A stretch of DNA of 58,656 bases from Candidatus Zixiibacteriota bacterium. GTDB lineage: Bacteria; Zixibacteria; MSB-5A5; GN15; FEB-12. Under the pieces are notes generated by a model. That model made no database searches, was not told where the DNA came from, and worked only from the letters and a program-made list of their open reading frames with translations. Each line of letters opens with the position of its first letter. Within the stretch, counting starts at the first letter, position 1. Below are positions 2,481 through 24,714 of the stretch, piece by piece. The DNA lies in the NCBI GenBank assembly GCA_041742355.1, contig JBGSIV010000191.1:1-58656 (forward strand). The letters are read 5' to 3'. Position numbers and translations under genes: made by a program.

Positions 2481-2499
<19 letters not shown>

Positions 2500-4154
2500 T
2501 TACTCAAGTTGGACGCTCCCCCGATAATCCCCAGAATCCCCTCAAGCTTCGGCTGCCCAATTAGCATCACCCCCGCTTTGCCGTCCTGGGTCGCTGGCAT
2601 GGCCGTCAGCCGTCCGATAAGCCCCGCGATATCCTGCCGTGCCGCCAAAGGGTCAGTGGTAATCAAATCCTGAAGCCGCTTCAGCCAATCTGAAATGCGA
2701 GGTGGCTCTACTCGAATCTTCTTCGCAGCCCGCCGATTCCTGTACTCCTCGAACTGCACGTTCAGCCCCGCGAGCTCGATCTCCTTCTGTTTGAGCGACT
2801 GCTGAATTGCGGCCGAGACTTCCCCGGTTCGGGCAACGTAGCCCACCAAGTTCTGGATCTCCCGGGTGACCGAAGCAATCCGCTTGTCAATCTTGTCCCG
2901 CTCTCCCCAGGCGGATTGCTGTTCTTCCTCGATAGCCTCGTTGACCTTTTCCACCAGGATCTGGACCACGTCGGGATTCAGAACCCGCTCTCGGAGCGCC
3001 GTCAATACCCTGTCCTCAATGTCGGCCTTGCGGATTCGGACGTTATTGGGGCAAGCCTTGTGGCCCCGCTGCCAGTTGAAACTGCAACCGTATACGATGT
3101 TCTCGGAATTACTCCCCCGAACCACGACATAGCTGGCTCCGCAAACCCCGCACTTCAGGAGGCCGGACATGACGTAATGGTTCCGAGGCGTCGGGTTGCC
3201 CCGGACGTATCTCCGGGAGTTACCGGCGAACCGTGCTTGCACGGCATTCCACGTGTCCTGGTCGATAATCGCCAACTTCGGGTCTTTGTGCTCTACCCAA
3301 TCGTCCTTCGGCCGCTCCACCCTCACCCGCTTGCCGGTATTCCGCTTGCGGACGTACTTGTTCTTATTCCAGGTCCAGTCTCCAATGTACTTGGTATTTT
3401 GGAGCATTACTCGAATGGCATGAGGACACCAAGTCGGATTCGGATTTCCCCTGTTGCGCTTGTCCTGGGCTGCCGGGGGTTCAATGCCTTGCTCGTTGAG
3501 CGCCGCTGCAACCGCCTTAAGGCCGTATCCATCGGCATAGAGTGCAAAGATGAGCTTGATTGCCCGAGCCTGTTCGGGGTCTACGCTGATTGCCGTGCCC
3601 AAACGCCTCGTCAGCCCGGTACTCCTGTCGCGGGCTCCAGACGGATCTAAAACAGGCTCGTACCTATACCCAAAGGTCTTTCCACCAGGATTATACCCTT
3701 GGAGAACCTGATCCTCCATACCGCGCTTCGTCTTCTTGGCGAGGTCCCGGCTGTATAGGGCATCTTTGATCCCGAAGACCGGGAGGATCACGTCTTGTGT
3801 CGTTTCGTCCTCGGTGTCGATATTATCTGACACGAAATGGACGAAGACACCTGCATCCTTCAACTCTTCGACTGACTGAAAGAGATCCAGTTTATTTCTG
3901 GCAAGTCTGGAGGTATCGTCAATCAGGACCCGATCAAACGGTCGGGGGCGCTTGGACGCTGCCCGCAGTAACTGGTGCAACGCATCCCGGCCCTCGGCGC
4001 TAGTCCCAGACACGGCGCGGTCAGCGTAAATGTGTTCCTCAGTGATAGTCCACCCGCGTTCTCGGGCACGTTTCCGGCAGTTACGGACCTGTTGCTCGAT
4101 AGAGCGGTCGTTCTGCCTGTCACTTGAGTATCTGGCGTAGATTGCACAGCGCAT
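2481..4154 (-). CDS. Large serine recombinase (integrase)
   Basis: CAIYARYSS catalytic Ser motif, DDTSRLAR, recombinase domain, Zn-ribbon LLKCGVCG..YGC..C, coiled coil; stop codon lies inside the tRNA T-arm. Confidence 0.95.
2490..2513. other. attL of the LSR element (core plus P' arm)
   Basis: P' arm GCCATTACTCAAGTTGGA (2496-2513) is the reverse complement of 24679-24696 at 16 of 18 positions. Confidence 0.85.
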
Positions 4155-4163
4155 ACTACAACT

Positions 4164-4412
4164 CTACAGCGGATTCCCCCGTTTGGCAATCACAAATGGC
4201 CGACGGCGGCGAGATTCATGCAACGATTCCGGCACCTGCTTCGCAGCTCGGCAGCACGACTGCCCGGCAGACTCCGAATCCTGCGGCGAGTTCTGCTCCT
4301 CTTCCAGGATCTTCTTCGCAATGGCCTTGGCTAGAAAATTCAGGAAGCGGTCCCAATCGGGATCGTCAAGAATCCCCTCGGATTCTCCGATATGCAGCCC
4401 CTCATCCTTCAA
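4164..4412 (-). CDS. Small hypothetical protein directly upstream of the integrase (candidate directionality factor)
   Basis: 82-aa ORF overlapping the stop of the upstream gene and ending 9 bp before the LSR start; function inferred from position only. Confidence 0.5.
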   Translation of the reverse strand: MKDEGLHIGESEGILDDPDWDRFLNFLAKAIAKKILEEEQNSPQDSESAGQSCCRAAKQVPESLHESRRRRPFVIAKRGNPL

Positions 4413-4993
4413 CGCCGTTTCTTTCGTTTCCCTATGACTTCGCTGTGCAGCTTGGCTATCTCGTAGGACATCCGAAGCATTTTGTTCGCAATTTGGGTCT
4501 GCTTGCGCCTTGACCGCGTTCGCTGGAACCGTTCCTCAAGCAGAGGCATCACGTCAAGGTAAGCGAAAAACGATGACCATTTCGTCTTGCCTTCCTGCTG
4601 GCTCTGATAGGTGAGCTTGTAGCATACCCGACAGGCGAAGTACTTCTGGCCTGGAGGCAGGTACAAAAGGCGGCACCGCCGGTAGCAGCTCGGGCAGTTG
4701 AACCACCAGCGGGAGTTGCCAAAGAAGCAGGGAGTTGTCTCCAGGCAGACGTAGTACGAGAGGTTTTCGGGTTCACCAGAGCGGGGCGTAAGGGTGTAGG
4801 TCAGTAGCAGCGAGGTTTCCGGGATGACTTTCCAAGCGATCATGCTCTCTTTCCCCAACCCACTCGTCCAGGTCGAGTAGCCTGTCTGAGCCAAGGTGAA
4901 GTCGATCTTTTTGGCAAGCCTGCTCATATCCAACCTCAGACACGCCTCCGTCTGCGTCTTTTTCCAGAAGACGCCTCGTCCTACATGAGCCAT
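4409..4993 (-). CDS. Hypothetical Cys-rich (Zn-binding) basic protein of integrative elements
   Basis: WWFNCPSC..RCRLLY..FACRVCYKLTYQSQ; ATG 4993 chosen because of a GGGAGA RBS (ORF track starts at 5008). Confidence 0.7.
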   Translation of the reverse strand: MAHVGRGVFWKKTQTEACLRLDMSRLAKKIDFTLAQTGYSTWTSGLGKESMIAWKVIPETSLLLTYTLTPRSGEPENLSYYVCLETTPCFFGNSRWWFNCPSCYRRCRLLYLPPGQKYFACRVCYKLTYQSQQEGKTKWSSFFAYLDVMPLLEERFQRTRSRRKQTQIANKMLRMSYEIAKLHSEVIGKRKKRR

Positions 4994-5236
4994 GGACATT
5001 TCTCCCACTTTTCGAAATCAATAGAGAAAGCGGACATTTCCTGAAACACTGACGCGGCGCGTACGCTGTTACTAGTCAGTAGGTTAAGTCTCCAGTTCCG
5101 AACTTCATCCGAGTGTCGCATGTGCCTTACAAATCTGGCTCTTTTTGGCTCACCAAAACTGGGCGGACAAGGTCGGTCAAGCCCCACAGAAATCTCCCCA
5201 CTGAGCCTCGATCTCACTGTACCCATATCTTATCCC

Positions 5237-5548
5237 TCACTTCCGATCATTCGCACCCTGCGGCGATTTGGGGTCGTGCAAGTCCTTGTCGTTCAATCCG
5301 CGTTTTGCGGCAGTTTCTGGCGGTTGAGACCGGGTTCCTATCTGCTTTCGGATGCTATCAACTTGGTCCTCGGACACGATCACATCCCAGGCCCGGGTGC
5401 CATCCGGATAGTAGTAACGGGCGGAGTGACAGCAGCCCTTGCGGCGGATGAGCCGTTCATACAAGCTCCGGTCTTCAGTGTAGACCCGATACTCGCAGCC
5501 GAACCACCGGCTGATCTCTGTCGCCCCAGCGTTATCTGTCCTTGTCAT
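5237..5548 (-). CDS. Hypothetical protein
   Basis: 103-aa ORF whose start overlaps the stop of the upstream gene (ATGA). Confidence 0.55.
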   Translation of the reverse strand: MTRTDNAGATEISRWFGCEYRVYTEDRSLYERLIRRKGCCHSARYYYPDGTRAWDVIVSEDQVDSIRKQIGTRSQPPETAAKRGLNDKDLHDPKSPQGANDRK

Positions 5549-6348
5549 TTTGCCCCCACCCCATTGTCACTATTGCCCCCACATGAATCAGTATCCAATG
5601 GGATACTGGAGGTCTTTTTCTTCAAGGCTTCTCTGCGACTGTGTGTAGGAGCAGGAACAGGGAAACAGCGTCGGATCTCTGAGGCTTTGTTCTCCCAGAC
5701 CCGAGGAGTGCCCGGCGTGTATTCGATCAGCCCGACAGCAGCAAGTGCAACAAGATCCTGCCCGATGCGGCTGCGGTCCTTGCCGAGGGCTTCGGCCAGT
5801 TCACGGTGACTCACGAAGATTAGACCGCCCTTGCCGACTCGTCGCTTTCGTTCGAAGTGGGGCAGAATACCGGAGTAGAGCAGCACTTGGCGCGAAGTCA
5901 GGTAATGCGACCAGTGGTAGTCAAAGAAAGCCATATCGTTGACATCCTTTTGTTTTGATCGGACGCGATTGATCCACGGGCACTCCTCACCGATGCAGAG
6001 GGACTTCAGAACCGCATGGCCGCAGGAGTAGTTGTATTTTCCGAGATAACCATTGTTGACGGCTTTGCGCAGTTCATTGAGCCGAAGAGGCGGCTGGTGA
6101 TATTTATTCCATTGCTCGACTCGCAAGTAGCCCTCGTCGTAGTTCTTGCCAATCCTGTCCATTTCGGTTGCGATGATCAAGGCCGCCTCGTTGCGATTGG
6201 GGAAGTCCCCCTTTTTGAGGGCCATCTCCATGAGTTGCGCGATACACGGTCGAATGTCCTGGGCCGGATGGGTGACTGCCTTGGAGACCTCACCTGAGGC
6301 GATCAGGCCCTTTTCGATCCGCGTGGCTGCCTTTGTGTCAAATTCCAT
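5545..6348 (-). CDS. Putative replication protein: primase C-terminal-like (PriCT/PriL-like) domain plus winged HTH
   Basis: RPCI..RNEAA..WN..PPL..EL..NYSC..C..C followed by VSHRELAEALGKDRSRIGQDLVALAAVGLIEY (wHTH). Confidence 0.6.
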   Translation of the reverse strand: MEFDTKAATRIEKGLIASGEVSKAVTHPAQDIRPCIAQLMEMALKKGDFPNRNEAALIIATEMDRIGKNYDEGYLRVEQWNKYHQPPLRLNELRKAVNNGYLGKYNYSCGHAVLKSLCIGEECPWINRVRSKQKDVNDMAFFDYHWSHYLTSRQVLLYSGILPHFERKRRVGKGGLIFVSHRELAEALGKDRSRIGQDLVALAAVGLIEYTPGTPRVWENKASEIRRCFPVPAPTHSRREALKKKTSSIPLDTDSCGGNSDNGVGAK

Positions 6349-6387
6349 TTGCTGTCGCTGCCAGATCCTTTGGCAGTCTCTTTCATT

Positions 6388-6651
6388 TCATTGTAAATGC
6401 CCACCGAGCCCTCCCGAACTGGCCATGGCCTTGAGGGTCTTAAGTGTATCCAGGAAAGCGAGGGGTTCAACGGATGCGCGTCGGTTCACGAAGTCGATTG
6501 CGTTTCTGTCGAGATCAGGCGTTCTCTGAAGCAGAAAGGTTGCTCTGCCGCGATTGCTTTGACTAATGGAGTGCAGGGAATAGCCGGAGAGGATTAGGTA
6601 TGCAGCGAGGGCGATGTCGGGGGTTCGAAAGTCGCTGTTGGTATCTCTCAT
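6388..6651 (-). CDS. Small DUF5659-like protein
   Basis: FRTPDIALAAYL..GY..GRATF..F..VEPLAF pattern; start placed at ATG 6651, downstream of the predicted sigma-54 promoter. Confidence 0.65.
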   Translation of the reverse strand: MRDTNSDFRTPDIALAAYLILSGYSLHSISQSNRGRATFLLQRTPDLDRNAIDFVNRRASVEPLAFLDTLKTLKAMASSGGLGGHLQ

Positions 6652-6698
6652 CTCATAGCATCCATGCAGGACGATGTTTTCATCTGCACAAATGCAAA

Positions 6699-6713
6699 TC
6701 AAGAACCGTGCCA
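6699..6713 (-). promoter_or_regulatory. Putative sigma-54 (-24/-12) promoter
   Basis: Minus strand reads TGGCAC-GGTTC-TTGA against consensus TGGCAC-N5-TTGC. Confidence 0.7.
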
Positions 6714-6742
6714 ATTATGGAGAAAAAAGAGAATACAAAGAA

Positions 6743-6755
6743 TCTCAAGGGGTTA
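6743..6755 (+). promoter_or_regulatory. Putative IHF site
   Basis: TCTCAAGGGGTTA against WATCAANNNNTTR (one mismatch), with an A-rich tract on its 5' side; lies between promoter and enhancer. Confidence 0.5.
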
Positions 6756-6800
6756 CATGAAATAGCAAGAGCGGATCAAAGCGACTTTCACCTTGGCTGC

Positions 6801-6835
6801 TCGGAGTAATTCCGAAAATCTCGGAACTACTCCGA
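6801..6835. promoter_or_regulatory. Putative enhancer (UAS): two palindromes TCGGA-N5-TCCGA, centres 20 bp apart
   Basis: TCGGAGTAATTCCGA (6801-6815) and TCGGAACTACTCCGA (6821-6835). Confidence 0.6.
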
Positions 6836-8308
6836 ACCGTATTGCTTCCGCTTGACTTTGATAGTCTTGTCAGACAAGCCTGTCATCTTCGCGATCCGAT
6901 TGTCAGTGTACTGACCGTATTTCGAAAACAATCGCCGAAAGAACTGGCGGTCGAAATCTTCCTTTGCGTCTCTATAGCGGTCAATGGCTTTGCGCGGCGA
7001 TTGCTCTTCGGAAGAGGTACGAACGCTCTGCCTGAAGCCGAAGTAATTGAGGCTGATCTGTACGGCAAGTTGACTTATGGAACGCCGGTCGGCACCACCA
7101 TATCGGGGCGGCTTGGACTTTTTTCCCAGCTTGACCCCGAGATCTGGAAGGTCATCGATCAGGAGATTCCCATAGTGAAGGATTGTGACTTGCTTCGGTA
7201 TGCCTTCGAGCCTCAAGAGTCCTAAAAACTTGATCGGCTTTGAACCAATACGCATGGATGATAGAATCGTTGGTTCAATGACAGTTGAACCATCATCCGA
7301 CATTTGAGCAAGGAATCTGTAGATTCCGCTGATCGGCTTGTTGTCACTCGTTTCGCCTACTTGCAGGAAGTACAGGAACTCAAGATACTTGCGAAGCTCT
7401 ACAGAAACACCATAGGCAAGGTACCCGGGAAGGTCCTCGTCCAGTCGGCAGGCATATTCCTCCGGCTTGCAGAATATTGGCCTATTCAGTTCGAAGTACC
7501 TTTCAAGTTTTTCGTCAAGCTGTTCCGCCAGAGGATAAAACTCCGTGACGGCCGGAAAGAGGCGGATCGTCGAACCTAGCGACCTATGCGCTGCATAGGT
7601 ACAAAAAGCCCCAAGCTCACGAACATTTCCGCGCCACTCGTTGACCAGGCAGAATGCCAAGAAATGGAAGTCCATCGATTCAAAATCGAAAGGCTTGAGG
7701 TATTTCCGGAGAAGCGGAAGCATCACTTGACTACTCATCACATGCGACAGACGCTCGGTTGTGATCAGGATGGATCTAATCCTGTACAGGAGATCCGGCC
7801 GGAAATCCCGGGCATCGAAGACGTTCTTGCTCGTGGCTGCCACTATGCGCACGTCCGTCCTAACCGGAGGCTGCTCGCTGCCGAGCGGCATCACTTCCCC
7901 GGTCTCCAGGAATCGGAGCAGACCCGACTGTGCATCCGGGGGCAAGTCTCCGATTTCATCGAGAAATACGGTGCCCCCATTTGCCCTGGCAAATAGACCC
8001 TTCTTAGTGTGATCAGCCCCCGTGAATGCTCCTTTCATATGACCGAACAGCTCAGAATACAGCAGGTCGCGCGGGTAGAATGCACAGTTTATAGAGAGGA
8101 AGCGGTCCGGGCTGCGTTTGCCGTTGTCCCTAATGAGCCCTGCGATGAGTTCTTTTCCTGTGCCAGTAGGACCGTAGATTAGGACAGGCAGGTCACAGCG
8201 ACTTGCCAAATAGATCTGTTCGAAGACTTCGGGCCGTTTAGTTACCAGAATCTCAGTCGCCCTCACTAGAAAGTCCTGGAACTCCCGCGTTATTTTCGTC
8301 TGTGGCAT
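6827..8308 (-). CDS. Sigma-54-dependent enhancer-binding protein (bEBP) without an N-terminal sensor domain
   Basis: Walker A GPTGTGKE, SELFGHMKGAFTGA (intact GAFTGA), Walker B FLDEIG, FRPDLLYR, WRGNVREL, C-terminal HTH; likely start ATG 8308 (ORF track 8389). Confidence 0.9.
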   Translation of the reverse strand: MPQTKITREFQDFLVRATEILVTKRPEVFEQIYLASRCDLPVLIYGPTGTGKELIAGLIRDNGKRSPDRFLSINCAFYPRDLLYSELFGHMKGAFTGADHTKKGLFARANGGTVFLDEIGDLPPDAQSGLLRFLETGEVMPLGSEQPPVRTDVRIVAATSKNVFDARDFRPDLLYRIRSILITTERLSHVMSSQVMLPLLRKYLKPFDFESMDFHFLAFCLVNEWRGNVRELGAFCTYAAHRSLGSTIRLFPAVTEFYPLAEQLDEKLERYFELNRPIFCKPEEYACRLDEDLPGYLAYGVSVELRKYLEFLYFLQVGETSDNKPISGIYRFLAQMSDDGSTVIEPTILSSMRIGSKPIKFLGLLRLEGIPKQVTILHYGNLLIDDLPDLGVKLGKKSKPPRYGGADRRSISQLAVQISLNYFGFRQSVRTSSEEQSPRKAIDRYRDAKEDFDRQFFRRLFSKYGQYTDNRIAKMTGLSDKTIKVKRKQYGSE

Positions 8309-8514
8309 TTCGCTATTCTCTCGTTCGTGTTCTAGCTCTCCGGAACATGCCTGAATCGGCTGTCGGCTCTTGAGGTCCCCCAAAGGCATTCCCCCCAGCC
8401 GAATCGAAAGGTTAGTGAACGGGCCAGGTTCAGTTCCAAGGTGAGACTAACTTCGAGGATCGTCAACGATAATCAGTGCCGCGTCGTGAATGGCAAATCG
8501 CCCGTACCCAGCCA

Positions 8515-8799
8515 CTAAAGATCGATCCCCTTCTCCTTGGCAATCTCGGCCACTGACTTCCTTCGCGGCCGAGCCTTGATATTCTCCCGGGCAAGGTAGT
8601 CGATTAGAGCCAACGAGACAAATTCGCTCTGCGACATTCCCCGGTGCTCAGACTCGCTCTCGATTATCTCGATAATCCGCACGGGAAGGTTGAATGTCTT
8701 GGGTTTGAGTTCAATCCCTTTAGGGGGACGCCCCCGCCCATCAACTTGCTTTGTGGTCTTGGACCGGGAGAGAAGGCTGTCTTTCGTTCTCTTGACCAT
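8515..8799 (-). CDS. Ribbon-helix-helix (CopG-like) DNA-binding protein
   Basis: GRPPKG..KTFNLP..IESESEHRGMSQSEFVSLALIDYL. Confidence 0.7.
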   Translation of the reverse strand: MVKRTKDSLLSRSKTTKQVDGRGRPPKGIELKPKTFNLPVRIIEIIESESEHRGMSQSEFVSLALIDYLARENIKARPRRKSVAEIAKEKGIDL

Positions 8800-9409
8800 G
8801 ATGATTCAATCCTCCAATATCTTCGCGTGCTATAAAATCAAGCCAGTACATACTTCACGCACCTGCGAACAGCGCCAATAAGTAATAGGCGTCGTAATAT
8901 GTCAACTTTTTTTCATAATTATTTGTGTTTGTGGCGGTTGGCCTCGTCCTGGCCGAGACTCCGAAAACCTCGCTCCACTAAGACTCAGCTTGGAGAGGCC
9001 GCCGACAAGGAATCGAATGGCCGATCCGAGCAGAATTTGGCAGAGAGGTTGAGGAGCGGAAGTTCGCTTATCGCTTCAGGCGCTTAAGCTCACTTCGCGC
9101 CTCAATCGGTCTGCATGCATGATCTGATCACTAAGGCAATCAAGAAGTGGATTGACTATCCTGAAGCCACAGTGTAATTTATCATAGTCCGCTGGTCAGG
9201 AGTTGCTTAACTGGGGAGTCTAATCCCAAATCGCATGGAAGGGACTTCGCTGAGTTGCTTGAGGACTTCAACTTGTTGACTCAACTGGTGACCTGCCCGG
9301 AATCCCATTCCCGCGAATCGTGCGGAACCGGCATCAAACTGAGACAAGCGGCTCACGGGGTTCAAGACAAGATTCTGATACGGACTGTAACAACGAGGGT
9401 GGGTGATAC

Positions 9410-12400
9410 TTGAGGCTAATCCGTAATTCCGGAACCGATCGTGTTGTAGATGAGGTTCGGAGGCGGCTCCAGGGTGGGGTACAGCTTGACATCGCTTCCC
9501 CGTCCTTCTCATTGATGGCGTTTGCCGCTCTGAATGACCTCCTCTACTGTTTATCCAAAGCTCGCCTGATTCTGCCGCTTTCAGTAGAAAGCGATCTCGG
9601 ACTTTTTGGCAACGCAGATGATCGAGCAAGAAGGAACCGACTGCAGGGCCGTTGGCTTGCTAATGCCTGCGCAGATTGGATTCGAGAGAAGGCGGAAGTT
9701 AGGTCTCCTGGCAGCTTCATACCGCAGTCACTGTACGGAATCCGAAACGAGAACTTCGCCGCAACTACAATCATTACCGGAAATTGCCCCTTTACGACCA
9801 ATGGCTTGGGCATTACACCGAACGACCAGTTGAGCCTCATTAACTGCGCAGATACTCGTAGTGAGGTCGAACTTCTCTCCAATTGGTTTGAATCTCTCTG
9901 GAAATCGTTGCCCGACTCAGAAACTCCAAAGGCGTCTCTCCTCGAACGACTCCATGAGGCCGGACGGCATTTCACCCCCGCAGAAGTGTTCTTCTGCACA
10001 TTGTTCCACCTTTTCAGAGCCCGAGGAGATGAGTTGGACGAGGAACTCATCGTAAAATCGGCTACAGGAATCAGGAACACGGTGGTTTGGAGAAAGCTCT
10101 ACAAGTTCCAACGTGACGGAGTTATCGGCGCTATTGAAAAACTTGAGCGCTTTGGCGGGTGCATCATCGCTGATAGCGTTGGACTCGGAAAGACCTTCGA
10201 GGCCCTTGCGATTATCAAGTACTACGAGCTGCGGAATGATCGGGTTCTCGTGTTAGTCCCCAAGAGGTTACGAGACAATTGGACTCTGTATAAAGCCAAT
10301 GACCGGCGGAATATATTGGCCCCGGACCGGCTGAATTATGACGTTCTCAACCACACGGATCTTTCACGCGACGATGGGCTTTCAGGTGATATCGATCTTG
10401 CTCACGTCAATTGGGGCAACTACGATCTTCTCGTGATTGACGAATCACACAATTTCCGCAATAAGCCGAGTCACAAAGATCGTGAGTCTCGATACGACCG
10501 ATTGATGCAGACTATTATCCGGCAGGGAGTAAAGACACGTGTGCTCATGCTTTCAGCAACGCCTGTGAATAACCGGCTTGCCGATTTGCGAAACCAGATT
10601 GCTTTCGCGACGGAGGGAGACGACACTGCCCTCTTCGAGCACGGGATACCGAGCATCGAGGCGACGACGCGGATGGCCCAACGGCAGTTCAACCGATGGC
10701 TTGCACTGGAAGATTCGGATCGTACGCCCACTGGCCTCATAGATATGCTCGGCTTCGACTACTTCCATCTGCTCGATCTGCTTACCATCGCGAGATCCAG
10801 GAAGCACATTGAGAAGTACTACGGCACCGTGGAAACTGGGCGATTCCCAGACCGTCTCAAGCCCATTAATATCAAACCTGATGTCGATAGTGCTGGCGAA
10901 TTCAGATCAGTTAAAGAGATTAATAATGAAATCCGTCGATTGAACTTGGCCGCGTATGCCCCTCTGCGCTATGTGATGCCCCACAAGCAGGCAGCTTACG
11001 ACGCTAAGTACAGCACGGCAATTCGTGGGGGAGAAAGCTTCTTCCGGCAACTGGACAGAGAAGAGAGCTTGGTACATCTACTTCGGGTCAATGTTCTCAA
11101 ACGCATGGAGAGCTCCGTTACTTCCTTTGCCCTGACTGTTGGGAGACAGATCGCCGATGTTGAGGCAACGATAGCGAAAATCGAGGCCCATGCAGAGGCG
11201 GTTGAAGAGATCGGTATCGCCGACCTCGACATTGACGACCCCACATTTGAACCGTTGCTCGTCGGTCGAAAGGTGAAGGTGCTCCTGCAGGACGTTGACC
11301 TTGTGCGCTGGAGACAAGACCTAATCGAGGACCGCAACCGTCTGGCCACTCTCCACACGGCAGCCCGACAGGTTGGCGCTGCGCGAGACGCCAAGCTGGA
11401 GGCCCTTCGAGCAGTTATTCAGCAGAAGTGTACGCACCCGATCAACGACGGGAATCGAAAAGTAATCGTGTTCACGGCATTTGCCGACACGGCCACATAT
11501 CTCTATCAGCAACTATCGCCCTGGGCATCCGAGACACTCGGCATTCAGAGCGCCCTGGTAACCGGGACCGGGAGCAACCAGACCACAATTGTCAGCATAC
11601 GTAGAGACCTTTCTACGATTTTAACGGCCTTCTCGCCGAGATCCAAAGACTGTCCACCCGACTTGGCTCAGGAGGGTGAAATCGACTTGCTGATCGCCAC
11701 CGATTGTATCTCTGAGGGCCAGAATCTCCAGGACTGTGATTGGTTGGTGAACTACGATATACATTGGAACCCGGTCCGTATTATTCAGCGTTTCGGGCGG
11801 ATTGATCGCTTAGGCTCGCCCAATGCTCGGATTCAGCTAGTGAATTTCTGGCCCAATATGCAACTGGAGGAGTACATCAAGCTTGAGCAGCGCGTGACCG
11901 GCAAGATGGTGCTGCTTGATGTTTCGGCCACGGGAGAAGAAAACCTCATCGAGTTGCAGTCCGGCAATCAAATGAACGATTTAGAGTACAGGCGGAAGCA
12001 ACTCCTGAAGCTACAGGATGCCGTTATTGATCTGGAAGACTTGTCAAGTGGAGTCTCAATTACCGACCTTACCCTCACCGATTTTCGCATCGAGTTGGCG
12101 AGTTATCTCAAAGACCACGAGGGACATTTGAACCGCCTTCCACTTGGAGCCTATGCGGTCACCTCATCGCAGAGCTTTGGCGAAGTGACTATTCCTCCCG
12201 GAGTGGTGTTCTGCCTCAAGTCTGAGAGTAGAGCGACGGGTGAAGTCGAGGACCCGGGCTATCCCCTGAATCAGCACTACTTGGTTCACATGGGTGAGGA
12301 CGGGCAAACTTTGCTATCACCTAATCAAGTGAAGCCAATTCTGGACCGTTTGAGAAAGCTCTGCGTTGGACGGGATCACCTGGACCAAGAGGCTTGCAGG

Positions 12401-15338: not shown

Positions 15339-15409
15339 GAGACTCTAAGCTGCGGCAATTCCTCACGCGGATCTCACTTTGCTTTGACTACACCAAAGGG
15401 GCATGAAGG

Positions 15410-17308
15410 ATGAAGAAGCTTTCAGCTAACGATCTAGAGACCAAATCGGCTGATATTGTGGCTCAGAATGTTGAGCAGTTGAAGGTCCTCTTCCCCGAGG
15501 CATTCATTGAGGGTAAGATTGACTTCGAAGTGCTCAAACAGATCCTGGGCGGACAGGTAGACGAGCGGGAGGAGAAGTACGGCCTGAATTGGCATGGGAA
15601 GCGTCGGGCACGGCAATTGGCCCTCACGCCGAGCACTGGCACACTCCGCCCTTGCCCCGAGGATAGTGTTGATTGGGACACGACCCAGAACCTGTTGATT
15701 GAGGGCGATAACCTCGAAGTACTCAAACTCCTTCAGAAGAGCTTCAGCCGGAAGATTAGAGCCATCTACATTGATCCGCCCTACAACACAGGTCGCAACC
15801 TGATATATCCGAACGACTATCAGGACGGTATTCGGACATACTTGGAAGTGACAGGTCAGATTGAGGGTAGTGCAAAGCTCACGAGTAACCCCGATGCTGG
15901 AGGGCGCTTTCACACTAATTGGCTCTCAATGATTTACCCACGTCTGAAGCTAGCGAGAAATCTGCTTACGAGTGACGGTGTTTTGATATGTGCCATCGAT
16001 GATAACGAAGTCAGTCAGTTAGGGGTTGTCTTGAGGGAGATATTCGAAGAGGGTACCTATGACCACGTATGCGTACCAGTGGTGCATAATCCACGAGGAG
16101 TTCAAGGAAAGAATTTTTCTTACGTCCACGAGTACGCGTACTTCGTGTATCCGTCAGGGTTGAAAGCAATCTGTGACCGCAAGATCGAAGAGGATGAAGT
16201 CGATTGGTCTCAGTTTCGTAATTGGGGCTCAGAGTCAGAAAGAACGGATGCAAAAAATTGCTTCTATCCTGTCTTGGTGAAAGACGGACAAATCATCGGG
16301 TTCGGTGACGTATGTGATGACAGCTTCCACCCCAACCAAACAGAAGTCGCTAACGATATTGCACACGTGTATCCTATCGACAGAGCAGGTGTGGAACGCA
16401 AATGGCGCTATGCCCGTCAATCCGTCGACTCAATTGCGAGCATGCTGCGTGCAAGGAAGACGGCTTACGGCTATGAGATTGAGCTCGGCAAGACCTTTGG
16501 CTTGTACAAGACGGTGTGGCATGACAAGAGGTACGATGCGAACGATTACGGCACAGGTATGGTGGGTGACCTTGTTCCTGATTCCCCATTCACGTTCCCA
16601 AAGAGTCTTTGGGCGGTTTACGACAGCCTCCTTGCTGCGACCGGAGATGACCCCAATGCCCTGATCCTTGACTTCTTCGCTGGCAGTGGCACGACGGGAC
16701 ACGCTGTAATGGAGTTGAACAAGGAAACGGCTGGAAACCGGCGATTCATCCTTGTCCAGTTGCCCGAAGTAGTAGAAGGCAACGACAAGTTCCCGACAAT
16801 CTTCGAAGTTACTAAGGCGAGGGTCAAGGCGGCCGCTGAACAGATTAGGTCAGCAGACCCCGACTGTAGAGCTGACTTGGGCTTCCGCGTTTTCAGACTC
16901 GACAGTAGCAATATTCGCGCTTGGGAGCCGGATCGGGACGACCTTCCCAAGACCCTTGAGGAGTCGGTTCAACACCTGAAGACAGATCGAACTGAGCAGG
17001 ACATCCTCTTTGAGCTTCTTCTCAAGCTGGGCCTCGATCTCACAGTACCCATTGAAGAGAAGGCCATTGCCTGCAAGACTGTCTATAGCGTTGGGGCTGG
17101 CACCCTTTTGGTGTGTCTCGCTACGGAAATAGCGGTTCCAGAGGTAGAGCCGTTGGCGCTTGGTATCATAGAGTGGCACAAGCAGTTAGCTCCAGCCGGT
17201 GACACCCAGGTTGTCTTCCGCGACAGCGCCTTTGCTAACGACGTGGCTAAGACCAACTTAGCGGCTATCCTCCAACAGCATGGGTTGGAGAATGTAAGGA
17301 GCTTGTAA
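15410..17308 (+). CDS. mod: Type III R-M methyltransferase (Mod)
   Basis: LIEGDNLEVLK, IYIDPPYNTG (motif IV), DFFAGSGTTG (motif I), beta-class order. Confidence 0.95.
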   Translation: MKKLSANDLETKSADIVAQNVEQLKVLFPEAFIEGKIDFEVLKQILGGQVDEREEKYGLNWHGKRRARQLALTPSTGTLRPCPEDSVDWDTTQNLLIEGDNLEVLKLLQKSFSRKIRAIYIDPPYNTGRNLIYPNDYQDGIRTYLEVTGQIEGSAKLTSNPDAGGRFHTNWLSMIYPRLKLARNLLTSDGVLICAIDDNEVSQLGVVLREIFEEGTYDHVCVPVVHNPRGVQGKNFSYVHEYAYFVYPSGLKAICDRKIEEDEVDWSQFRNWGSESERTDAKNCFYPVLVKDGQIIGFGDVCDDSFHPNQTEVANDIAHVYPIDRAGVERKWRYARQSVDSIASMLRARKTAYGYEIELGKTFGLYKTVWHDKRYDANDYGTGMVGDLVPDSPFTFPKSLWAVYDSLLAATGDDPNALILDFFAGSGTTGHAVMELNKETAGNRRFILVQLPEVVEGNDKFPTIFEVTKARVKAAAEQIRSADPDCRADLGFRVFRLDSSNIRAWEPDRDDLPKTLEESVQHLKTDRTEQDILFELLLKLGLDLTVPIEEKAIACKTVYSVGAGTLLVCLATEIAVPEVEPLALGIIEWHKQLAPAGDTQVVFRDSAFANDVAKTNLAAILQQHGLENVRSL

Positions 17309-17369
17309 ATAAGGGAAACTTCCTTTTAGCCCCGTAAAAGGGGGCCGGGCTTAAGCTATTGAGGCTTGA

Positions 17370-17405
17370 TTTTGTCACGAAAAGTGTATACTTTTCGTGA
17401 CAAAA
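17370..17405. promoter_or_regulatory. Perfect 16-bp inverted repeat, probable AbiEi operator
   Basis: TTTTGTCACGAAAAGT-gtat-ACTTTTCGTGACAAAA overlapping TATACT (17387-17392) and abutting the AAGGAG RBS. Confidence 0.8.
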
Positions 17406-17419
17406 GGAGCCTGAATATT

Positions 17420-18043
17420 ATGGCGCAAGGCTTAAGCCAGCAAATACTTGCAAGAATATACCAGTTTGAGAGGGGTAAGGTTTTTACTCCAAAGGATTTT
17501 TTAGACCTTGCAAGCCACGAAACCACAAGAAAGACATTAGAGCGTCTGACTAAGCAAGGGACAATCCGTCGCCTCTTGCGGGGAGTCTATGAATACCCAG
17601 TATTTAGCACACTGTTTCAGGCTCCAGCCAGCCCTGATCCCGATGCTATCGCCAGAGCAATTGCCAGAGCTCATGGGTGGACGATTCTGCCATCAGGAGA
17701 GACAGCATTAAACCTACTCGGACTGTCTACTCAAGTCCCCGCCAAATGGGAGTATTTTAGCGACGGTCCTTCTAAGATCTACGAATGGCAGGGAGGGAAG
17801 CTCATATTCAAACGCCGAACCAACAAAGAGACAACAATTCTCTCACCCAAAACCGCCTTGCTGGTTCAGGCACTCAAGACCCTCGGCGAGGAGCACGTCT
17901 CGGAATCTGTGATAGTCGCGCTTCAAGCCAAACTCGGTGCCGAGGACCGAAAACGTGCCGCCCGAGAGGCCCAGTATGCGACATCATGGGTGTATGAGAT
18001 AATAAAGCGGCTGGCGGCAGACAACGAGTCAGGCAATGCGTGA
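17420..18043 (+). CDS. AbiEi-like antitoxin/transcriptional regulator (DUF6088-like)
   Basis: N-terminal wHTH (VFTPKDFLDL..LERL..GTIRRLLRGVY), ALNLLGLSTQVP; ATG 17420 after AAGGAG. Confidence 0.85.
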   Translation: MAQGLSQQILARIYQFERGKVFTPKDFLDLASHETTRKTLERLTKQGTIRRLLRGVYEYPVFSTLFQAPASPDPDAIARAIARAHGWTILPSGETALNLLGLSTQVPAKWEYFSDGPSKIYEWQGGKLIFKRRTNKETTILSPKTALLVQALKTLGEEHVSESVIVALQAKLGAEDRKRAAREAQYATSWVYEIIKRLAADNESGNA

Positions 18044-19169
18044 TATAGCTCGGCGTTCAACAAAAGATAGGCGAGACCTATTCATGGGCACAGCCGAGGC
18101 CATGAAAGTGCATCAAGCCATTGTGGAAAAGGACTTCTGGGTATGTTGGATTTTGGACTATCTGTTTCAGGAGAGTCCGTGGAAAGATGATCTTGCCTTC
18201 AAAGGTGGAACCAGCCTGTCAAAGGGATACGGAGCCATCGAGAGATTCTCAGAGGACATAGATCTTATCCTCGATTGGAAGATATTGGGTTATTCCGATG
18301 AGGAGCCGTGGAGGGAGCGGAGTACAACTCAGCAGGACAAGTTCTGTAAGGTTGTCGTAAAACGCACTGTCGACTACTTGAGGAACGAATTCGCTACTGC
18401 ATTGACTCCAGCATTGGCAGAGCGAATCGACGCTGGTGCTGCTGGTGCCGCTGCTGCCGCTGCTGCCGCTGCCGCAAGAGGAATGACCGTCTCTAATTCG
18501 CAAGGTGACAGTGATAGTGGCGGTGGTGCTGGTGCTGGTGCCGACAGAGATGAAGAAGTAGGTGGCATCAATGTAGAAGTGAGCGCAGATGGCGAGGCTT
18601 TGTTGGTGCGATATCCAAGAGCCTTTTCGTTAGAAGCCATTCAACCGGAAATCAGGCTCGAAATTGGACCACTTTCAGAAGCGGTCCCGAACGAATTGAG
18701 GGCCATTTCCCCCTTTGCTGCCCAGGTTTTCCCAGAGATTTTCACGCAGCGCAGCACTAGCGTGACGACTATCCGAGCGGAGAGGACGTTTTGGGAGAAG
18801 GCGACAATCCTCCACCAAGAAGCACACCGCAGCATTGAGCGACCACTCCCTAGACGGTATTCCCGGCACTATTACGATCTGTATCGTCTTAGTTGTCTGC
18901 CGATAAGAAGCAGTGCGCTCAGGCAGATGGATCTGCTGAAGCAAGTCGTTGAGTTCAAGTCAAAATTCTACTACTGCTCCTGGGCTAAGTTCGGAGACGC
19001 TAAGCCGGGGACGCTCAAGTTGCTTCCTCCGGCCCACTACAAGGCCGATCTGGAGAGAGATTATCAATCCATGAGGGCGATGCTCTTCGGTTCTGTTCCG
19101 AGTTTCGAGGACATTATCAATGGGTTGAAGGCCTTGGAGGAAGAAATCAACCAACTACCTGGATTCTGA
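18036..19169 (+). CDS. AbiEii-family nucleotidyltransferase toxin
   Basis: VEKDFWV, FKGGTSLSK..IERFSEDIDL, RTFWEKATILH, SRHYYDL. Confidence 0.92.
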   Translation: MRDIARRSTKDRRDLFMGTAEAMKVHQAIVEKDFWVCWILDYLFQESPWKDDLAFKGGTSLSKGYGAIERFSEDIDLILDWKILGYSDEEPWRERSTTQQDKFCKVVVKRTVDYLRNEFATALTPALAERIDAGAAGAAAAAAAAAARGMTVSNSQGDSDSGGGAGAGADRDEEVGGINVEVSADGEALLVRYPRAFSLEAIQPEIRLEIGPLSEAVPNELRAISPFAAQVFPEIFTQRSTSVTTIRAERTFWEKATILHQEAHRSIERPLPRRYSRHYYDLYRLSCLPIRSSALRQMDLLKQVVEFKSKFYYCSWAKFGDAKPGTLKLLPPAHYKADLERDYQSMRAMLFGSVPSFEDIINGLKALEEEINQLPGF

Positions 19170-19171
19170 TA

Positions 19172-22141
19172 ATGAAACTGCACTTTGAACCAAATCTCGA
19201 CTACCAGTTACAAGCAATTGATGCCGTATGCGGGCTGTTCAGGGGCCAGGAAGTATGCCGTACTGAGTTTACCGTTACGCGGGATGCGCTGTCCCTCCAA
19301 CAGACCTTGGCATTCGCACAAAACGAGCTGGGTATAGGAAACCGCCTGCATTTGCTGAACGATGAGATTCTGAGCAATCTCAAGAGCATACAACTGAACA
19401 ACGGGTTACCGCCCTCTTCCGCCCTGGATTCGGGCGACTTTACAGTTGAGATGGAAACCGGAACCGGCAAGACGTACGTCTACACCCGAACAATCTTTGA
19501 GCTCAATCGAAAGTACGGGTTCACGAAATTCGTGATCGTCGTGCCATCGGTGGCCATTAAGGAAGGCGTTTACAAGTCGCTCCAAATCACCGAGGATCAC
19601 TTTCGATCTCTCTATGCAAATGTCCCCTTTGAATACTTCCTGTACGATTCAAGCAAGCTGGGCCAAGTCCGCAATTTTGCCACCAGCCCGAATATCCAAA
19701 TCATGATCGTGACCGTGGGGGCAATCAATAAGAAGGATGTCAATAACCTCTATAAGGACTCTGAGAAGACCGGCGGTGAGAAACCCATCGACCTGATCAA
19801 GGCGACCCGGCCGATTCTGATTGTGGACGAACCTCAGAGCGTCGATGGTGGCCTAAAAGGACGGGGAAAGGGGGCACTCGAAGACATGAACCCGCTTTGC
19901 ACTCTTCGCTACTCTGCTACACACGTAGACAAACACCATATGGTCTATCGCCTCGATGCGGTAACCGCTTACGAGCGTAAGCTGGTCAAGCAGATTGAGG
20001 TCGCCTCAGCTACGGTAGAAGGAGGTCATAATAAGCCATTTATCCGGCTTCTGTCGGTTGCCAATAAGAGAGGCGTGATCACGGCCAAGGTGGAACTGGA
20101 TGTTCAAACCAGGACCGGAGTAAGCCGACGTGAAATCAATGTGCAGGATGGTGACGACCTTGAATTGACCACAAGCCGGGCAATCTACCACGACTGCCGT
20201 ATCGGCGAAATCCGCGTGGCGCAAGGTGACGAGTTTATGGAGGTGCGTTTTCCTGGCGGGGAGCAATTCCTTGGAGTCGGTCAAGCATACGGGGATGTTG
20301 ATCCTCTCGCAGTCCAGCGGGAGATGATTCGGCGGACAATCAAGGAGCACCTTGATAAAGAGAAGCGACTGCGTCCGATGGGAATCAAGGTCCTTAGCCT
20401 TTTCTTTATTGATGCCGTTGACAAATATCGCAAGCACGATGAGGAGGGAAGGGCAGAAAAGGGGGAGTATGCTCGGATTTTTGAAGAGGAGTACAGTCGA
20501 TTTGCCAATCACCCGGATTACCGCACGCTGTTCAAGGAAGTTGACCTGTCCGCAACACTCGATGAGATCCACAACGGCTATTTTTCCATCGACAGGAAGG
20601 GCGGCTGGACAGATACAGCAGACAACGATCAGCCTAACCGAGACAACGCCGAAAGAGCATACAATTTGATCATGCGGGACAAGGAGAGACTACTCAGTCT
20701 TGATACGCCATTGAAGTTTATATTCTCGCACTCGGCCCTGCGGGAGGGTTGGGATAACCCGAACGTGTTCCAGATATGTTCACTCCGTGAGATGGGATCG
20801 GAGCAAGAACGCCGGCAGACAATCGGACGCGGATTGAGGTTATGTGTCAATCAGCAGGGAGAACGTGTTCGAGGGTTCGAGGTCAATACTCTTACGGTAA
20901 TTGCGACCGAAGCGTACGAACAGTATGCGGAGAACTTGCAGAAGGAGATTGAAAGGGACACGGGCATACGTTTCGGAATCGTTGAAGAACATCAATTTGC
21001 TGCGATTCCGGTAGCAGGCGACAACGGTGAGATATCGCCGCTCGGTGTGGATCTTTCCAAAGAGTTATGGGATTACCTGAAGCATGAGGGATTGATCAAT
21101 GCACAGGGCAAGGTCCAGGACTCTCTGAGGCGAGTGCTTAAGGATGGAAATCTCACCGTCCCAGAGGCTTTTGAAGCACATTTGCCGCAGATAAAGGAGA
21201 TTCTTCGCAAACTGAGTGGGAAGCTGGACATTAAGGACGCTGACCACAAGAGGCCGGTGCGGGCACGACAGGCAATTCTCCACGGCGAGCAGTTTAGGGC
21301 TCTCTGGGATCGCATCAAGCATAAGACGACATACCGAGTCGAGTTTGATAATGAGGAGCTGATTGAATCGTGTGTCAGGTCAATGCGAGAAGCTCCGCCA
21401 GTTTCCAAAACGAGGCTTGAATGGCGCAAGGCCGACCTCGCAATTGGGCGTGCCGGAGTGGAGGCCACGGAGACAGGCACGGCGGCTCCAGTGACCATTG
21501 AAGAGCAGGACATTGAGCTTCCGGACCTGATCACGGATTTGCAGGACAAGACGCAGCTTACCAGGCGCACAATAGTCCGCATTTTGAACGAATGCGGCAG
21601 GCTCAATGATTTCAAGCGGAACCCTCAGCAGTTCATAGAGCTTGCGGCAGAGGCCATCAACCGTTCAAAGCGGCTCTGCGTCGTGGACGGCATCAAATAC
21701 CAGAAGCTCGGCGATGAGTACTACTACGCACAAGAGCTTTTCGAACAAAAGGAGCTCATGGGGTACCTGAGAAATATGCTCACCGATACGGTGAAGTCGG
21801 TGTTCGAGCACGTGGTTTACGACTCTGACAATGAAGCGAATTTCGCCACTCAACTGGAGAAGAACGAGGCCGTCAAAGTGTACGCTAAATTGCCTGGGTG
21901 GTTCACTGTTCCAACTCCGCTGGGTACATACAATCCAGATTGGGCCGTGCTAGTGCAAAAGGACAATGCCGAGCGCCTCTATTTGGTCGTGGAAACCAAG
22001 AGCAGCCTTTTCACGGGCGATCTACGGGACAAGGAGGGTGCAAAAATCAAATGCGGTCATGCCCATTTCGAAGCACTCAAGCAAGGCGCTTCTCCTGCGG
22101 AGTTCAAGGTGGCACGGGAAGTCTCGGGTCTATTTGAATAG
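19172..22141 (+). CDS. res: Type III R-M restriction subunit (Res)
   Basis: VEMETGTGKT, IVDEPQ, LREGWDNPNVFQ, QTIGRGLRL, YNPDW..VETK nuclease motif. Confidence 0.95.
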   Translation: MKLHFEPNLDYQLQAIDAVCGLFRGQEVCRTEFTVTRDALSLQQTLAFAQNELGIGNRLHLLNDEILSNLKSIQLNNGLPPSSALDSGDFTVEMETGTGKTYVYTRTIFELNRKYGFTKFVIVVPSVAIKEGVYKSLQITEDHFRSLYANVPFEYFLYDSSKLGQVRNFATSPNIQIMIVTVGAINKKDVNNLYKDSEKTGGEKPIDLIKATRPILIVDEPQSVDGGLKGRGKGALEDMNPLCTLRYSATHVDKHHMVYRLDAVTAYERKLVKQIEVASATVEGGHNKPFIRLLSVANKRGVITAKVELDVQTRTGVSRREINVQDGDDLELTTSRAIYHDCRIGEIRVAQGDEFMEVRFPGGEQFLGVGQAYGDVDPLAVQREMIRRTIKEHLDKEKRLRPMGIKVLSLFFIDAVDKYRKHDEEGRAEKGEYARIFEEEYSRFANHPDYRTLFKEVDLSATLDEIHNGYFSIDRKGGWTDTADNDQPNRDNAERAYNLIMRDKERLLSLDTPLKFIFSHSALREGWDNPNVFQICSLREMGSEQERRQTIGRGLRLCVNQQGERVRGFEVNTLTVIATEAYEQYAENLQKEIERDTGIRFGIVEEHQFAAIPVAGDNGEISPLGVDLSKELWDYLKHEGLINAQGKVQDSLRRVLKDGNLTVPEAFEAHLPQIKEILRKLSGKLDIKDADHKRPVRARQAILHGEQFRALWDRIKHKTTYRVEFDNEELIESCVRSMREAPPVSKTRLEWRKADLAIGRAGVEATETGTAAPVTIEEQDIELPDLITDLQDKTQLTRRTIVRILNECGRLNDFKRNPQQFIELAAEAINRSKRLCVVDGIKYQKLGDEYYYAQELFEQKELMGYLRNMLTDTVKSVFEHVVYDSDNEANFATQLEKNEAVKVYAKLPGWFTVPTPLGTYNPDWAVLVQKDNAERLYLVVETKSSLFTGDLRDKEGAKIKCGHAHFEALKQGASPAEFKVAREVSGLFE

Positions 22142-22572: not shown

Positions 22573-22788
22573 ATGCAAAGCTCCCTCAATCTCCCTCCCT
22601 CGGCTCCGCATATGCGCAAGTGCGCCGATTGCGGCCGATACACTGCCGTCTACCACTTCCTCGGCAGCGCCGTGTGCCCCTCTTGTCGGCGAATCCGTGA
22701 GGCGTTCCTGGATGAAATCTACCGCCAGTGGGATCGCCAGGATGAAACGGCAGCCCTCTCTGCCACTAACCGCTCTAACGAGCACTGA
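22573..22788 (+). CDS. Small Zn-finger protein
   Basis: CADC..CPSC; GAGGT RBS upstream. Confidence 0.6.
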   Translation: MQSSLNLPPSAPHMRKCADCGRYTAVYHFLGSAVCPSCRRIREAFLDEIYRQWDRQDETAALSATNRSNEH

Positions 22789-22799
22789 AGGGGGCAGCC

Positions 22800-23633: not shown

Positions 23634-23641
23634 ACGAGCAC

Positions 23642-23672
23642 GGAAGGGGCGGGTAATCCCGCCCTTTCCTTT
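23642..23672 (+). terminator. Putative intrinsic terminator/attenuator after ardC
   Basis: GGAAGGGGCGGG-taat-CCCGCCCTTTCC followed by TTT. Confidence 0.55.
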
Positions 23673-23707
23673 GATCGGAAACGCACAATCCATACGGAGC
23701 CAATACA

Positions 23708-24346
23708 ATGTTGAAGCTTACCGATAAATACAGACCGAAGGCCCTGGCCGATGTAGTGGGGCAGGACAAGGCGGTTGCCATTGTCGGCAAGATACTGGAA
23801 AGAGGCATTGGGGGCAGGGCATTCTGGGTAACGGGGGATTCCGGTACGGGCAAGACAACCTTAGCGAAGATCATCGCCGAGGCCGTGGCCGATCCGACCT
23901 GGGATCTTACGGAATCGGTTGCCCGTGAACTTACGCCAAACGGCATCCGGGAAGTGGCCAAGCGGTGGGGCAGGGTGCCGATGAAATCAGCCCATGCCTG
24001 GATCGTCAACGAGGCGCATGGGCTATCCCGACCCTGCATTGAGATCCTCCTGGAGATCCTTGAGAATCTCACGGAGAAGGTCGTGGTCGTATTCACCACA
24101 ACCAAACAGGGCAACGATCTCTTCGAGGAGCAGCTTGACTCGGGGCCATTTGCCTCACGTTGCATCGGGATTCGCTTGACTAATCAGGGGCTTTGTGCCG
24201 CCTTTGCTCGGAGGGCCAGGGAGATTGCCGAGGCCGAGGGCCTGGACGGGCAGCCAATCGAAGCCTACGAGAAACTGGCCAAGCGCAACCGGAACAACTT
24301 CCGAGCCATGCTTAACGAGATCGAATCCGGGGTCATGCTATGTTAG
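23708..24346 (+). CDS. Stand-alone clamp-loader-clade AAA+ ATPase (DnaX/RFC/RarA-like, no collar domain)
   Basis: [22 protein letters not shown], Walker B variant IVNEAH, SRC motif; only 212 aa. Confidence 0.85.
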
Positions 24347-24678
24347 TGGGGCAGACCGCAAGACTCCCCTGGAAGCCAGAAACGGGCTGGCTCCAAATGA
24401 AAAACCGCCTGGCCCTTGCGAGGCCAGACGGCTAACACGAGGGTCGAAGCCAATGCAAAGGCCTCGATCTTCGGCAGCAAGATACCCGACGGCACTGATT
24501 CAGGCAAGGAAATGTGCTTTGGGGAGGGATATGAGATATCGGCCTAATGGTTACAATCCGGCGAGGCTTCGCCTCGGTATACACAATTCTGACCGCTTTG
24601 TCAATCCTTTTGCAGCAGTGCTGTGAGAGAGCAGCTTAAGCCGCACACACGAAGATAGCAAACTGGGGCGATTCTCCA

Positions 24679-24714
24679 TCCAACTTGGGTAATTGCAGCC
24701 CCCCGCCACCATAA
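24679..24714. other. attR of the LSR element (P arm, core and displaced tRNA CCA end)
   Basis: TCCAACTTGGGTAATTGC-AG-CCCCCCGCCA-CCATAA. Confidence 0.85.

Follow-up and report, generated by a model that had tools for sequence, protein, structure and literature searches.

A serine integrase gene that spans its own attachment site in a tRNA-targeting defense island of Zixibacteria, and the tail predicted for its free form

Contig JBGSIV010000191.1 of a Candidatus Zixiibacteriota genome (assembly GCA_041742355.1), analyzed here over its full length of 58,656 nucleotides (nt; hereafter the window), carries a 22.2-kb defense island (2490-24708, between attL and attR) integrated into an initiator-type tRNA-Met gene. 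The integrase of this island is a large serine recombinase (LSR), and its open reading frame (ORF) crosses the attachment site at which the island recombines. Recombination with the tRNA gene would cut the integrase ORF at the crossover, such that the integrated gene would encode a protein of 557 amino acids (aa) with two tRNA-coded end residues, and the excised circle a 575-aa protein with a 20-residue tail. That the integrase alternates between tailed and cut-back isoforms through recombination is, in our assessment, very probable. We propose that the tail is a selected module that would give the free form of the integrase properties absent from the prophage form. Most likely, ClpXP would read an ssrA-like Ala-Ala at its C-terminus and so shorten the life of the free form; the integrase would then be limited to a pulse after entry or excision, and the integrated isoform would be untagged. 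The whole account, which joins a defense island, an LSR ORF crossing its own attP and a selected tail with a likely degron effect, is plausible, although we stop just short of calling it probable.

An integrase gene that crosses its own attachment site

The integrated ORF stops within the tRNA-Met gene (..SNGGG-RI-stop), and the tRNA supplies its last two codons and the stop. Pfam searches with the 557-aa protein returned the canonical LSR order, with Resolvase (PF00239, 1.2e-28, residues 4-153), Recombinase (PF07508, 1.4e-24) and Zn_ribbon_recom (PF13408, 2.6e-13). Only serine-recombinase domains were found by Pfam, and no tyrosine recombinase domain. The catalytic residues R8 and S10 are almost invariant in an alignment of 27 sequences of integrase homologues, and the four zinc-ribbon cysteines are invariant in it. 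The structural model of one homologue (P0013) contains a coiled coil of long paired helices (394-475) and matches the solved SPbeta-type, Bxb1 and phiC31 integrases in Foldseek with E values from 4.6e-19 to 6.8e-17.

The target gene, a tRNA-Met(CAT), is the only tRNA gene that ARAGORN called in the window (Table 1). By eye, the foot of its anticodon stem shows the three G:C pairs that are the hallmark of initiators, a feature unique to it among the three CAT tRNAs found in the assembly (93.8% complete). The longest word common to both junction regions is a 10-nt direct repeat (2490-2499 and 24699-24708). This core runs from the final two bases of the T-stem through the 3' acceptor strand to the discriminator, and the predicted crossover dinucleotide CC (2491-2492) lies on the boundary between the T-stem and the acceptor stem. 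After integration, the tRNA body is rebuilt from the 8-nt acceptor-strand copy of the element. Integration swaps the encoded CCA for TTA (window 2497-2503), so the initiator-type tRNA must rely on CCA addition. Such a loss is expected to be tolerated, since CCA is encoded in only 15 of the genome's 49 tRNA genes. An unoccupied site in a genome of the same genus (G100) reads ..GCCA-CCA, followed by a hairpin.

We rebuilt attP in silico with a script that slices the sequence and joins 24698 to 2490. The rebuilt site is an inverted repeat in which 17 of 22 positions are complementary, and its center of symmetry falls between the second and third C of the core (CC). Of 2000 random junctions between window segments, none reached 17, and the maximum of 16 was seen once. 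The site thus has the form known for LSRs, a short (about 40-50 bp) imperfect inverted repeat with a central crossover dinucleotide and minimal identity between attP and attB, which here share a core of 10 nt. Read through this junction, the ORF of the circle is 575 aa long and has a 20-residue tail ending in -AA. A first-pass annotation of the same DNA had described the joined ends as an inverted repeat matching at 16 of 18 positions and centered on CC, with an ORF of 557 aa when integrated and of 575 aa, with the -AA tail, on the circle; our scripted join recovered the repeat at 17/22, with 16 of those 18 positions complementary, and reproduced both ORFs exactly.

An independent attR finder, which compared the tRNA end with the 40 kb upstream and took all direct repeats of at least 7 nt, ranked 24699-24708 first among 116 candidates, with a score of 17 against 13 for the runner-up, and put the element at 22,209 bp. 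The junction could still have been mis-assigned, if the true island were 2490-38927, had been moved by another integrase since lost, and the repeat at 24699 were coincidental. A 45-nt 3' fragment of the initiator tRNA, CCA included, does lie at 38883-38927, the flank after 38927 is 86% like 24709-24756, and no integrase was found in 24709-38882. However, the inverted repeat arises only on joining 24698 to 2490 (17/22, rank 1 of 116), and the rebuilt tail matches natural free-form tails that were not used in finding the junction. The tRNA fragment and the missing integrase also accord with a tandem array, the LSR element having entered a tRNA copy regenerated by an older island. We therefore give mis-assignment hardly any credence.

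The same swap in relatives of the integrase

A word-indexed search returned 570 homologues, of which the best 120 were listed. Among the matches listed, 28 homologues share 41-69% identity with the integrase, and 22 of these 28 stop two residues past a conserved N(S/G)GG, with tRNA-coded ends of the ..GG(R/W/G/V)I type. The other six part from them precisely at this N(S/G)GG and run on for another 20-24 residues. For instance, P0011, which has a short end, and P0013, whose tail ends in -MAA, are 78% identical over their last 136 aa and split at the junction; P0011 was also the sole match when the C-terminal region was searched with P0013 as query. From the likeness of their tails to those rebuilt from attL and attR, we infer that P0007, P0008, P0013, P0016, P0024 and P0029 are probably the attP form.

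Protein ends were then classified by k-mers for the database proteins and with ARAGORN for the genomic loci. In most of the more distant homologues, the terminal peptide is an antisense translation of tRNA T-arm and acceptor-stem sequence. Ends of the tRNA type, by k-mers, were found in 135 of the 242 database homologues of at least 500 aa, and 59 of the 139 loci with a complete ORF end have an opposite-strand tRNA gene at the stop (Phe, Met, His, Thr, Glu, Leu, Ser, Arg, Ala or Gly). Inverted repeats of at least 15/22 located 9-37 codons before the stop occur at 26 of the 80 free-ended loci, compared with 4 of the 59 tRNA-ended loci and 18 of 600 random places.

In the phylum of the window, 17 of 285 genomes contain a homologue at E <= 1e-80. 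One of these homologues, L173, is a free form with a 21-aa tail ending in -AA; at the corresponding position, its relative L181 terminates within tRNA-Met. The L173 free form is carried by a contig of 11.7 kb (L206, the whole contig), whose best inverted repeat is 14/22; no terminal overlap was found in L206, so circularity is not supported. In Acidobacteriota, six loci (L028, L034, L035, L039, L044 and L045) have free-form genes with inverted repeats of 16-18/22 located 26-32 codons before the stop, and four of the six tails end in -AA. A scan of metagenome contigs with P0024 found two distant loci at 37% identity, and neither the P0024 nor the P0029 contig was among them.

The isoform switch recurs clade-wide, and the genes targeted by these relatives include tRNA-Met, -His, -Thr, -Glu and -Phe. 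The proposal made from the window alone, that the integrase itself is the switched protein, is borne out by these short and tailed relatives that diverge at the same junction.

A related case was seen in viral contigs, where L158 and L155/L159 belong to the same lineage and split after ..GLALP, the former with a 14-aa tail ending in -KAA and the latter with an 8-aa end. They are another natural pair of free and integrated forms, apparently at a non-tRNA site.

Tails rebuilt from integrated copies

To rebuild tails from integrated copies, we took as much as 60 kb of element-side sequence from each of eight integrated homologues and applied the attR finder; G190, which has an in-frame stop and, by script, no tRNA at the ORF end, was left out of this search. 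Tails could be rebuilt in three genomes. The copy in G070 (tRNA-His, 12-nt core, 13.8-kb element) gives a tail of 20 aa ending in -AA, the copy in G004 (tRNA-Thr, 18-nt core, 14.3-kb element) one of 21 aa ending in -IA, and the copy in G123 (tRNA-Glu, 17-nt core, 13.6-kb element) one of 25 aa ending in -TG, although for G123 this long-core candidate ranked second by inverted-repeat score. No convincing attR was found in G112, G013, G150 and G012 (short contigs, 7-8-nt cores, inverted repeats of at most 13). The first-pass annotation had suggested checking whether tails rebuilt in homologous tRNA-targeting elements keep an -AA end. Their length and character proved to be conserved in the three genomes, but the -AA end is not universal, as the -IA and -TG ends show. 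The rebuilt G070 tail starts like the natural tail of P0008, and the rebuilt G004 tail resembles that of L173.

To assess tail conservation, we aligned eight tails without gaps (those of the window, the six database proteins and G070). Whether the alignment was anchored at one end or the other, none of 2000 shuffles matched the observed score, and the result was unchanged without the close pair P0007/P0029. The first ~7-8 tail residues are set at the DNA level by the attP arm, and the C-anchored similarity falls outside this arm. Tail length is kept at 20-25 aa across lineages whose protein bodies are 33-55% identical. Because bodies this divergent imply that neutral DNA should have lost its likeness, we read the tail as selected, which these sequence comparisons make probable. 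It is this comparative evidence, more than the 20-codon open frame itself, that lifts the observation above chance.

The open frame taken by itself could be a neutral by-product of an attP that lies in the last codons, with a functionless read-through into the far end of the element. By our estimate, an open frame of 20 codons past the junction is not rare by chance at 61% G+C. Moreover, the start of the tail (about 7 residues) is imposed by the DNA of the attP arm, and the tail ends differ (-AA, -RA, -GA, -IA and -TG). A neutral origin is nevertheless improbable, given the tail length maintained over such divergent bodies, a C-anchored similarity outside the arm that beats 2000 of 2000 shuffles, the enrichment of terminal Ala and Ala-Ala in free forms and the strand that is predicted for the tail with fair confidence in the L173 model.

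Predicted structure and possible role of the tail

AlphaFold models were obtained for two free forms that are 33% identical, P0013 and the L173 protein, using alignments of 52-60 sequences. In both models the coiled coil is followed by a small domain of two helices, a beta-hairpin and a short helix. A 15-residue stretch with a predicted local distance difference test (pLDDT) score below 50 contains the recombination junction; the hydrophobic part of the tail then forms a strand of 6-8 residues, and the very end is loose. For P0013, the pLDDT lies below 50 at residues 545-560 and the strand covers 568-573 (pLDDT 68-77). In the L173 protein, the corresponding stretch is 540-554, the strand covers 560-567 in a block with a pLDDT of 86, and the last three residues, preceded by this predicted strand, fall to ~49. 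In these models the tail strand presumably pairs with the C-terminal domain's hairpin. As attP lies in a linker predicted to be disordered, the constraint on the DNA would cost the protein little, and a DNA site in such a linker is an example of a coding region tolerating a cis element. In the mechanism that we propose, the tail would thus be a strand behind a disordered linker, with loose last residues that are often basic and then Ala-Ala.

In ssrA tags, ClpX mainly recognizes the terminal Ala-Ala and its free carboxylate. On this point, PMC6109161 cites Flynn et al. 2001. The window tail ends in Ala-Ala, and nonpolar residues fill 8 of its final 10 positions. The tmRNA tag of the host ends in -MAA, and the host has clpX (TIGR00382, 585.5 bits against a cut-off of 370.75). 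Six of the eight tails of the close clade end in Ala, four of them in Ala-Ala, one in -RA and one in -GA; the remaining two end in -TG. On a wider scale, the free ORF ends in loci (n=80) include 30 with Ala and 11 with Ala-Ala, and the non-tRNA-ended database proteins (n=107) include 27 with Ala and 12 with Ala-Ala, figures that are rough, since they contain related sequences, duplicates (such as L155/L159, L147/L151, L154/L160 and L093/L094) and tRNA-coded ends left in the 'free' class. The background frequencies of terminal Ala and Ala-Ala are 8.5% and 0.47% among 2775 long ORFs of the same genome, and 12.9% and 3.4% among 1332 ORFs in the loci, integrases included. That the tail acts as a degron, an ssrA-like Ala-Ala end read by ClpXP, is a reading suggested by these sequences that we put forward tentatively and with some doubt.

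An equal rival to the degron reading is that the tail is a structural or activity module. Its strand would complete the sheet of the C-terminal domain, the free form would be competent for integration, and the prophage form would be excision-prone or weakened, locking the element in, similar to Mx8 IntX. The strand after a linker is predicted in two lineages as distant as P0013 and L173, and the alternating hydrophobic pattern of the tail is kept even where the end is not Ala. Integrated copies that have decayed at this site would also fit (only 49 aa are left in G099, G101 likewise keeps a remnant, and the G190 copy is broken by an in-frame stop), and the cited passages on Mx8 IntX provide a precedent (PMC6070905). 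On the other hand, a structural role leaves the enrichment of terminal Ala-Ala unexplained, and the P0013 strand has a pLDDT of only 68-77. In addition, the 135 tRNA-ended proteins among the 242 database homologues are full-length integrated forms, so cutting back the integrase does not bring rapid decay. We regard this reading as possible but on the unlikely side; it is compatible with a degron and the two are not exclusive. Under either or both, the free and integrated states of the element would have integrases that differ in dose or activity.

Several observations beyond the roughness of the enrichment figures weigh against the proposed account. The binomial P values for enrichment are overstated, and one count over 13 lineages used lineages picked after their ends were known. 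With -TG ends in two of the eight close-clade tails and in the distant G123, Ala-Ala is frequent and not universal. The strand predicted by AlphaFold in the two models accounts for the hydrophobicity of the tail without a degron, and the pairing partner of this strand is assumed. The free-form genes of Acidobacteriota sit within chromosomal contigs of 94 kb-2.76 Mb (Mb-scale for L034), which a simple alternation between circle and prophage does not explain. For the window itself, contig depth in the likely source run is equal in the flank (8.87) and the island (8.8-9.8). Finally, two sequencing runs contain this DNA, and no circle or empty-site junction was seen in the Logan contigs available; over 2001-22000, none of the joints and loose ends listed is at 2490, a result that is neutral on the circle. 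Loose ends at 2497/2499 have a low-agreement consensus at ~900x depth, and we read them as initiator tRNA genes of other organisms.

Comparison with known systems

In canonical LSRs such as phiC31, Bxb1, SPbeta SprA and A118, attP lies outside the int ORF, the targets are protein-coding, and direction is set by a separate recombination directionality factor. The prevailing view is that this separate factor, acting on the coiled coil, governs direction in serine integrases. The integrase of the window resembles phiC31, Bxb1, SPbeta SprA and A118 in its three Pfam domains and in its short imperfect inverted-repeat attP with a central dinucleotide, but differs from canonical LSRs in that attP lies within int and the target is a tRNA gene. 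No directionality factor was recognized among the small ORFs beside int or attR; one may still exist.

Integrase genes that cross attP are known among tyrosine recombinases. The SSV1 gene is split into two large parts, whereas here a serine recombinase loses a short tail. As here, the genes of SSV1-type archaeal integrases span attP and are cut on integration into a tRNA gene. In the passages cited, the Islander authors state that the Mx8 and SSV integrases run across attP and that no serine integrase is known to use a tRNA gene as its target (PMC4383910). For Mx8, the cited passages place attP within int, and integration gives a new 3' end and a protein with altered properties (PMC6070905). 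The Mx8 pair IntP/IntX is thus similar to the case described here, in that the integrase ORF spans attP and integration changes the C-terminus. However, Mx8 Int is a tyrosine recombinase of unrelated fold and chemistry, whereas here the protein is a serine recombinase and the feature is clade-wide. The Mx8 passages also describe no conserved short Ala-Ala tail such as the one found here (PMC6070905).

In BPs, the repressor gene contains attP, and the repressor loses its tag on integration; the tyrosine Int too carries a C-terminal tag for ClpXP-type proteolysis and is not switched (PMC3694055, in the passages cited). In Bifidobacterium prophages at tRNA-Met, a viral-only repressor tail of 18 residues has been rebuilt in silico (PMC6109161, likewise in the passages cited). 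The statement in the first-pass annotation that BPs-like phages shed a repressor tag through attP agrees with these passages (PMC3694055, PMC6109161). Here, integration removes a tail ending in Ala-Ala that may be a proteolysis tag. In BPs it is the repressor that is switched, and the tyrosine Int, of a type without an arm-binding domain, keeps its tag in both states, whereas here the integrase is switched, it is a serine recombinase, and it belongs to a defense island without a repressor (none was found at either junction of the element).

The largest survey of LSR att sites (Durrant et al. 2022, PMC10083194) deals in its main text with protein-coding targets, and the word tRNA occurs there 0 times. 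The cited passages of PMC12884075, PMC12424338 and PMC9144972 contain no serine integrase architecture in which the ORF spans attP. In open-access full text we found no report of a serine integrase ORF that spans attP or rewrites its own C-terminus, nor of a tRNA-targeting LSR clade; supplementary tables, such as the att sites of Durrant et al., and the TIGER/Islander database may list such cases. What is described here is integrase self-rewriting of the Mx8 type together with possible tag removal of the BPs type, now in serine recombinases tied to tRNA targets.

If our proposal is true, a self-rewritten C-terminus would be a second layer of control encoded by recombination itself, and the principles of Mx8 and BPs would extend to the other recombinase superfamily, in a large and little-studied group of tRNA-using LSRs. 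In its broadest form, a tRNA-targeting LSR clade found in Zixibacteria, Acidobacteriota, Proteobacteria and viral contigs would encode the free or integrated state in its own protein through a strand-plus-degron tail, which would set lifetime and/or reaction preference, beside or without a separate directionality factor. We consider it rather unlikely that this generalization holds in full. There is also a practical consequence. Surveys and tool pipelines take LSRs from integrated copies and thus, for this clade, obtain the truncated isoform with its tRNA-coded residues, not the integrating protein. Sampling of this truncated isoform could explain inactive LSR candidates.

Cargo of the element and its tandem setting

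The element is an integrative defense island rather than a recognizable phage. Its cargo (Table 1) includes a type III restriction-modification (R-M) system with scores of 568 bits for MTase_III (mod) and 1330 bits for REase_III (res).

Table 1. Coordinates of the features of the element and its surroundings in the window
Feature	Position	Strand	Basis and remarks
tRNA-Met(CAT), initiator type	2425-2500	+	ARAGORN; integration target (attB left half and core)
LSR gene, integrated isoform, 557 aa	2481-4154	-	ORF call and Pfam
attL copy of the 10-nt core	2490-2499		Direct repeat; holds the center of the inverted repeat
P' arm of attP	2500-2513		Within the integrase ORF, encodes ..SNLSN; complementary to 24679-24698
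Cargo	4164-24626		Sigma54-type AAA regulator, Snf2/HKD helicase, DUF4391, GmrSD-like, type III R-M, AbiEi/AbiEii, weak ArdC-like, small AAA ATPase; Pfam, PADLOC and PHROGs
Orphaned tail exon, 20 codons and stop	24636-24698	-	In frame with the integrase only on the excised circle
P arm of attP, at attR	24679-24698		Complementarity to the P' arm
attR copy of the 10-nt core	24699-24708		Followed by CCA and a flank like that downstream of the tRNA
Second island, 14.2 kb	24709-38927		Tandem behind the LSR element; ends in a 45-nt tRNA 3' fragment

Within the R-M operon (15410-22141), the AbiEi/AbiEii pair splits mod from res, such that an abortive-infection or toxin-antitoxin module is nested in it. 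The Snf2/HKD helicase, DUF4391 and GmrSD-like genes form a trio upstream of this operon. The second island encodes a nucleotidyltransferase, a DUF6880 protein, a protein of 2821 aa that matches DUF6443 weakly, and a PQQ-propeller protein bearing a type IX secretion system (T9SS) sorting domain.

At a tRNA-Met gene, the second-closest genomic homologue of the integrase (43% identity; L165 / L183-L184, G190:C8) has an in-frame TAG and is a decaying integrated copy. The initiator tRNA site is a recurrent landing pad in the genus, with elements decaying in place. Two genomes of the same genus are without a full LSR. In G099 (L200, G099:C3), a 49-aa remnant of an integrase C-terminus, 67% identical, lies beside the initiator tRNA gene. 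In G101 (L203, G101:C10), a remnant that is 42% identical and contains a stop adjoins a tRNA 3' fragment; in this genome, the tRNA and the 47-nt fragment are 58 kb apart.

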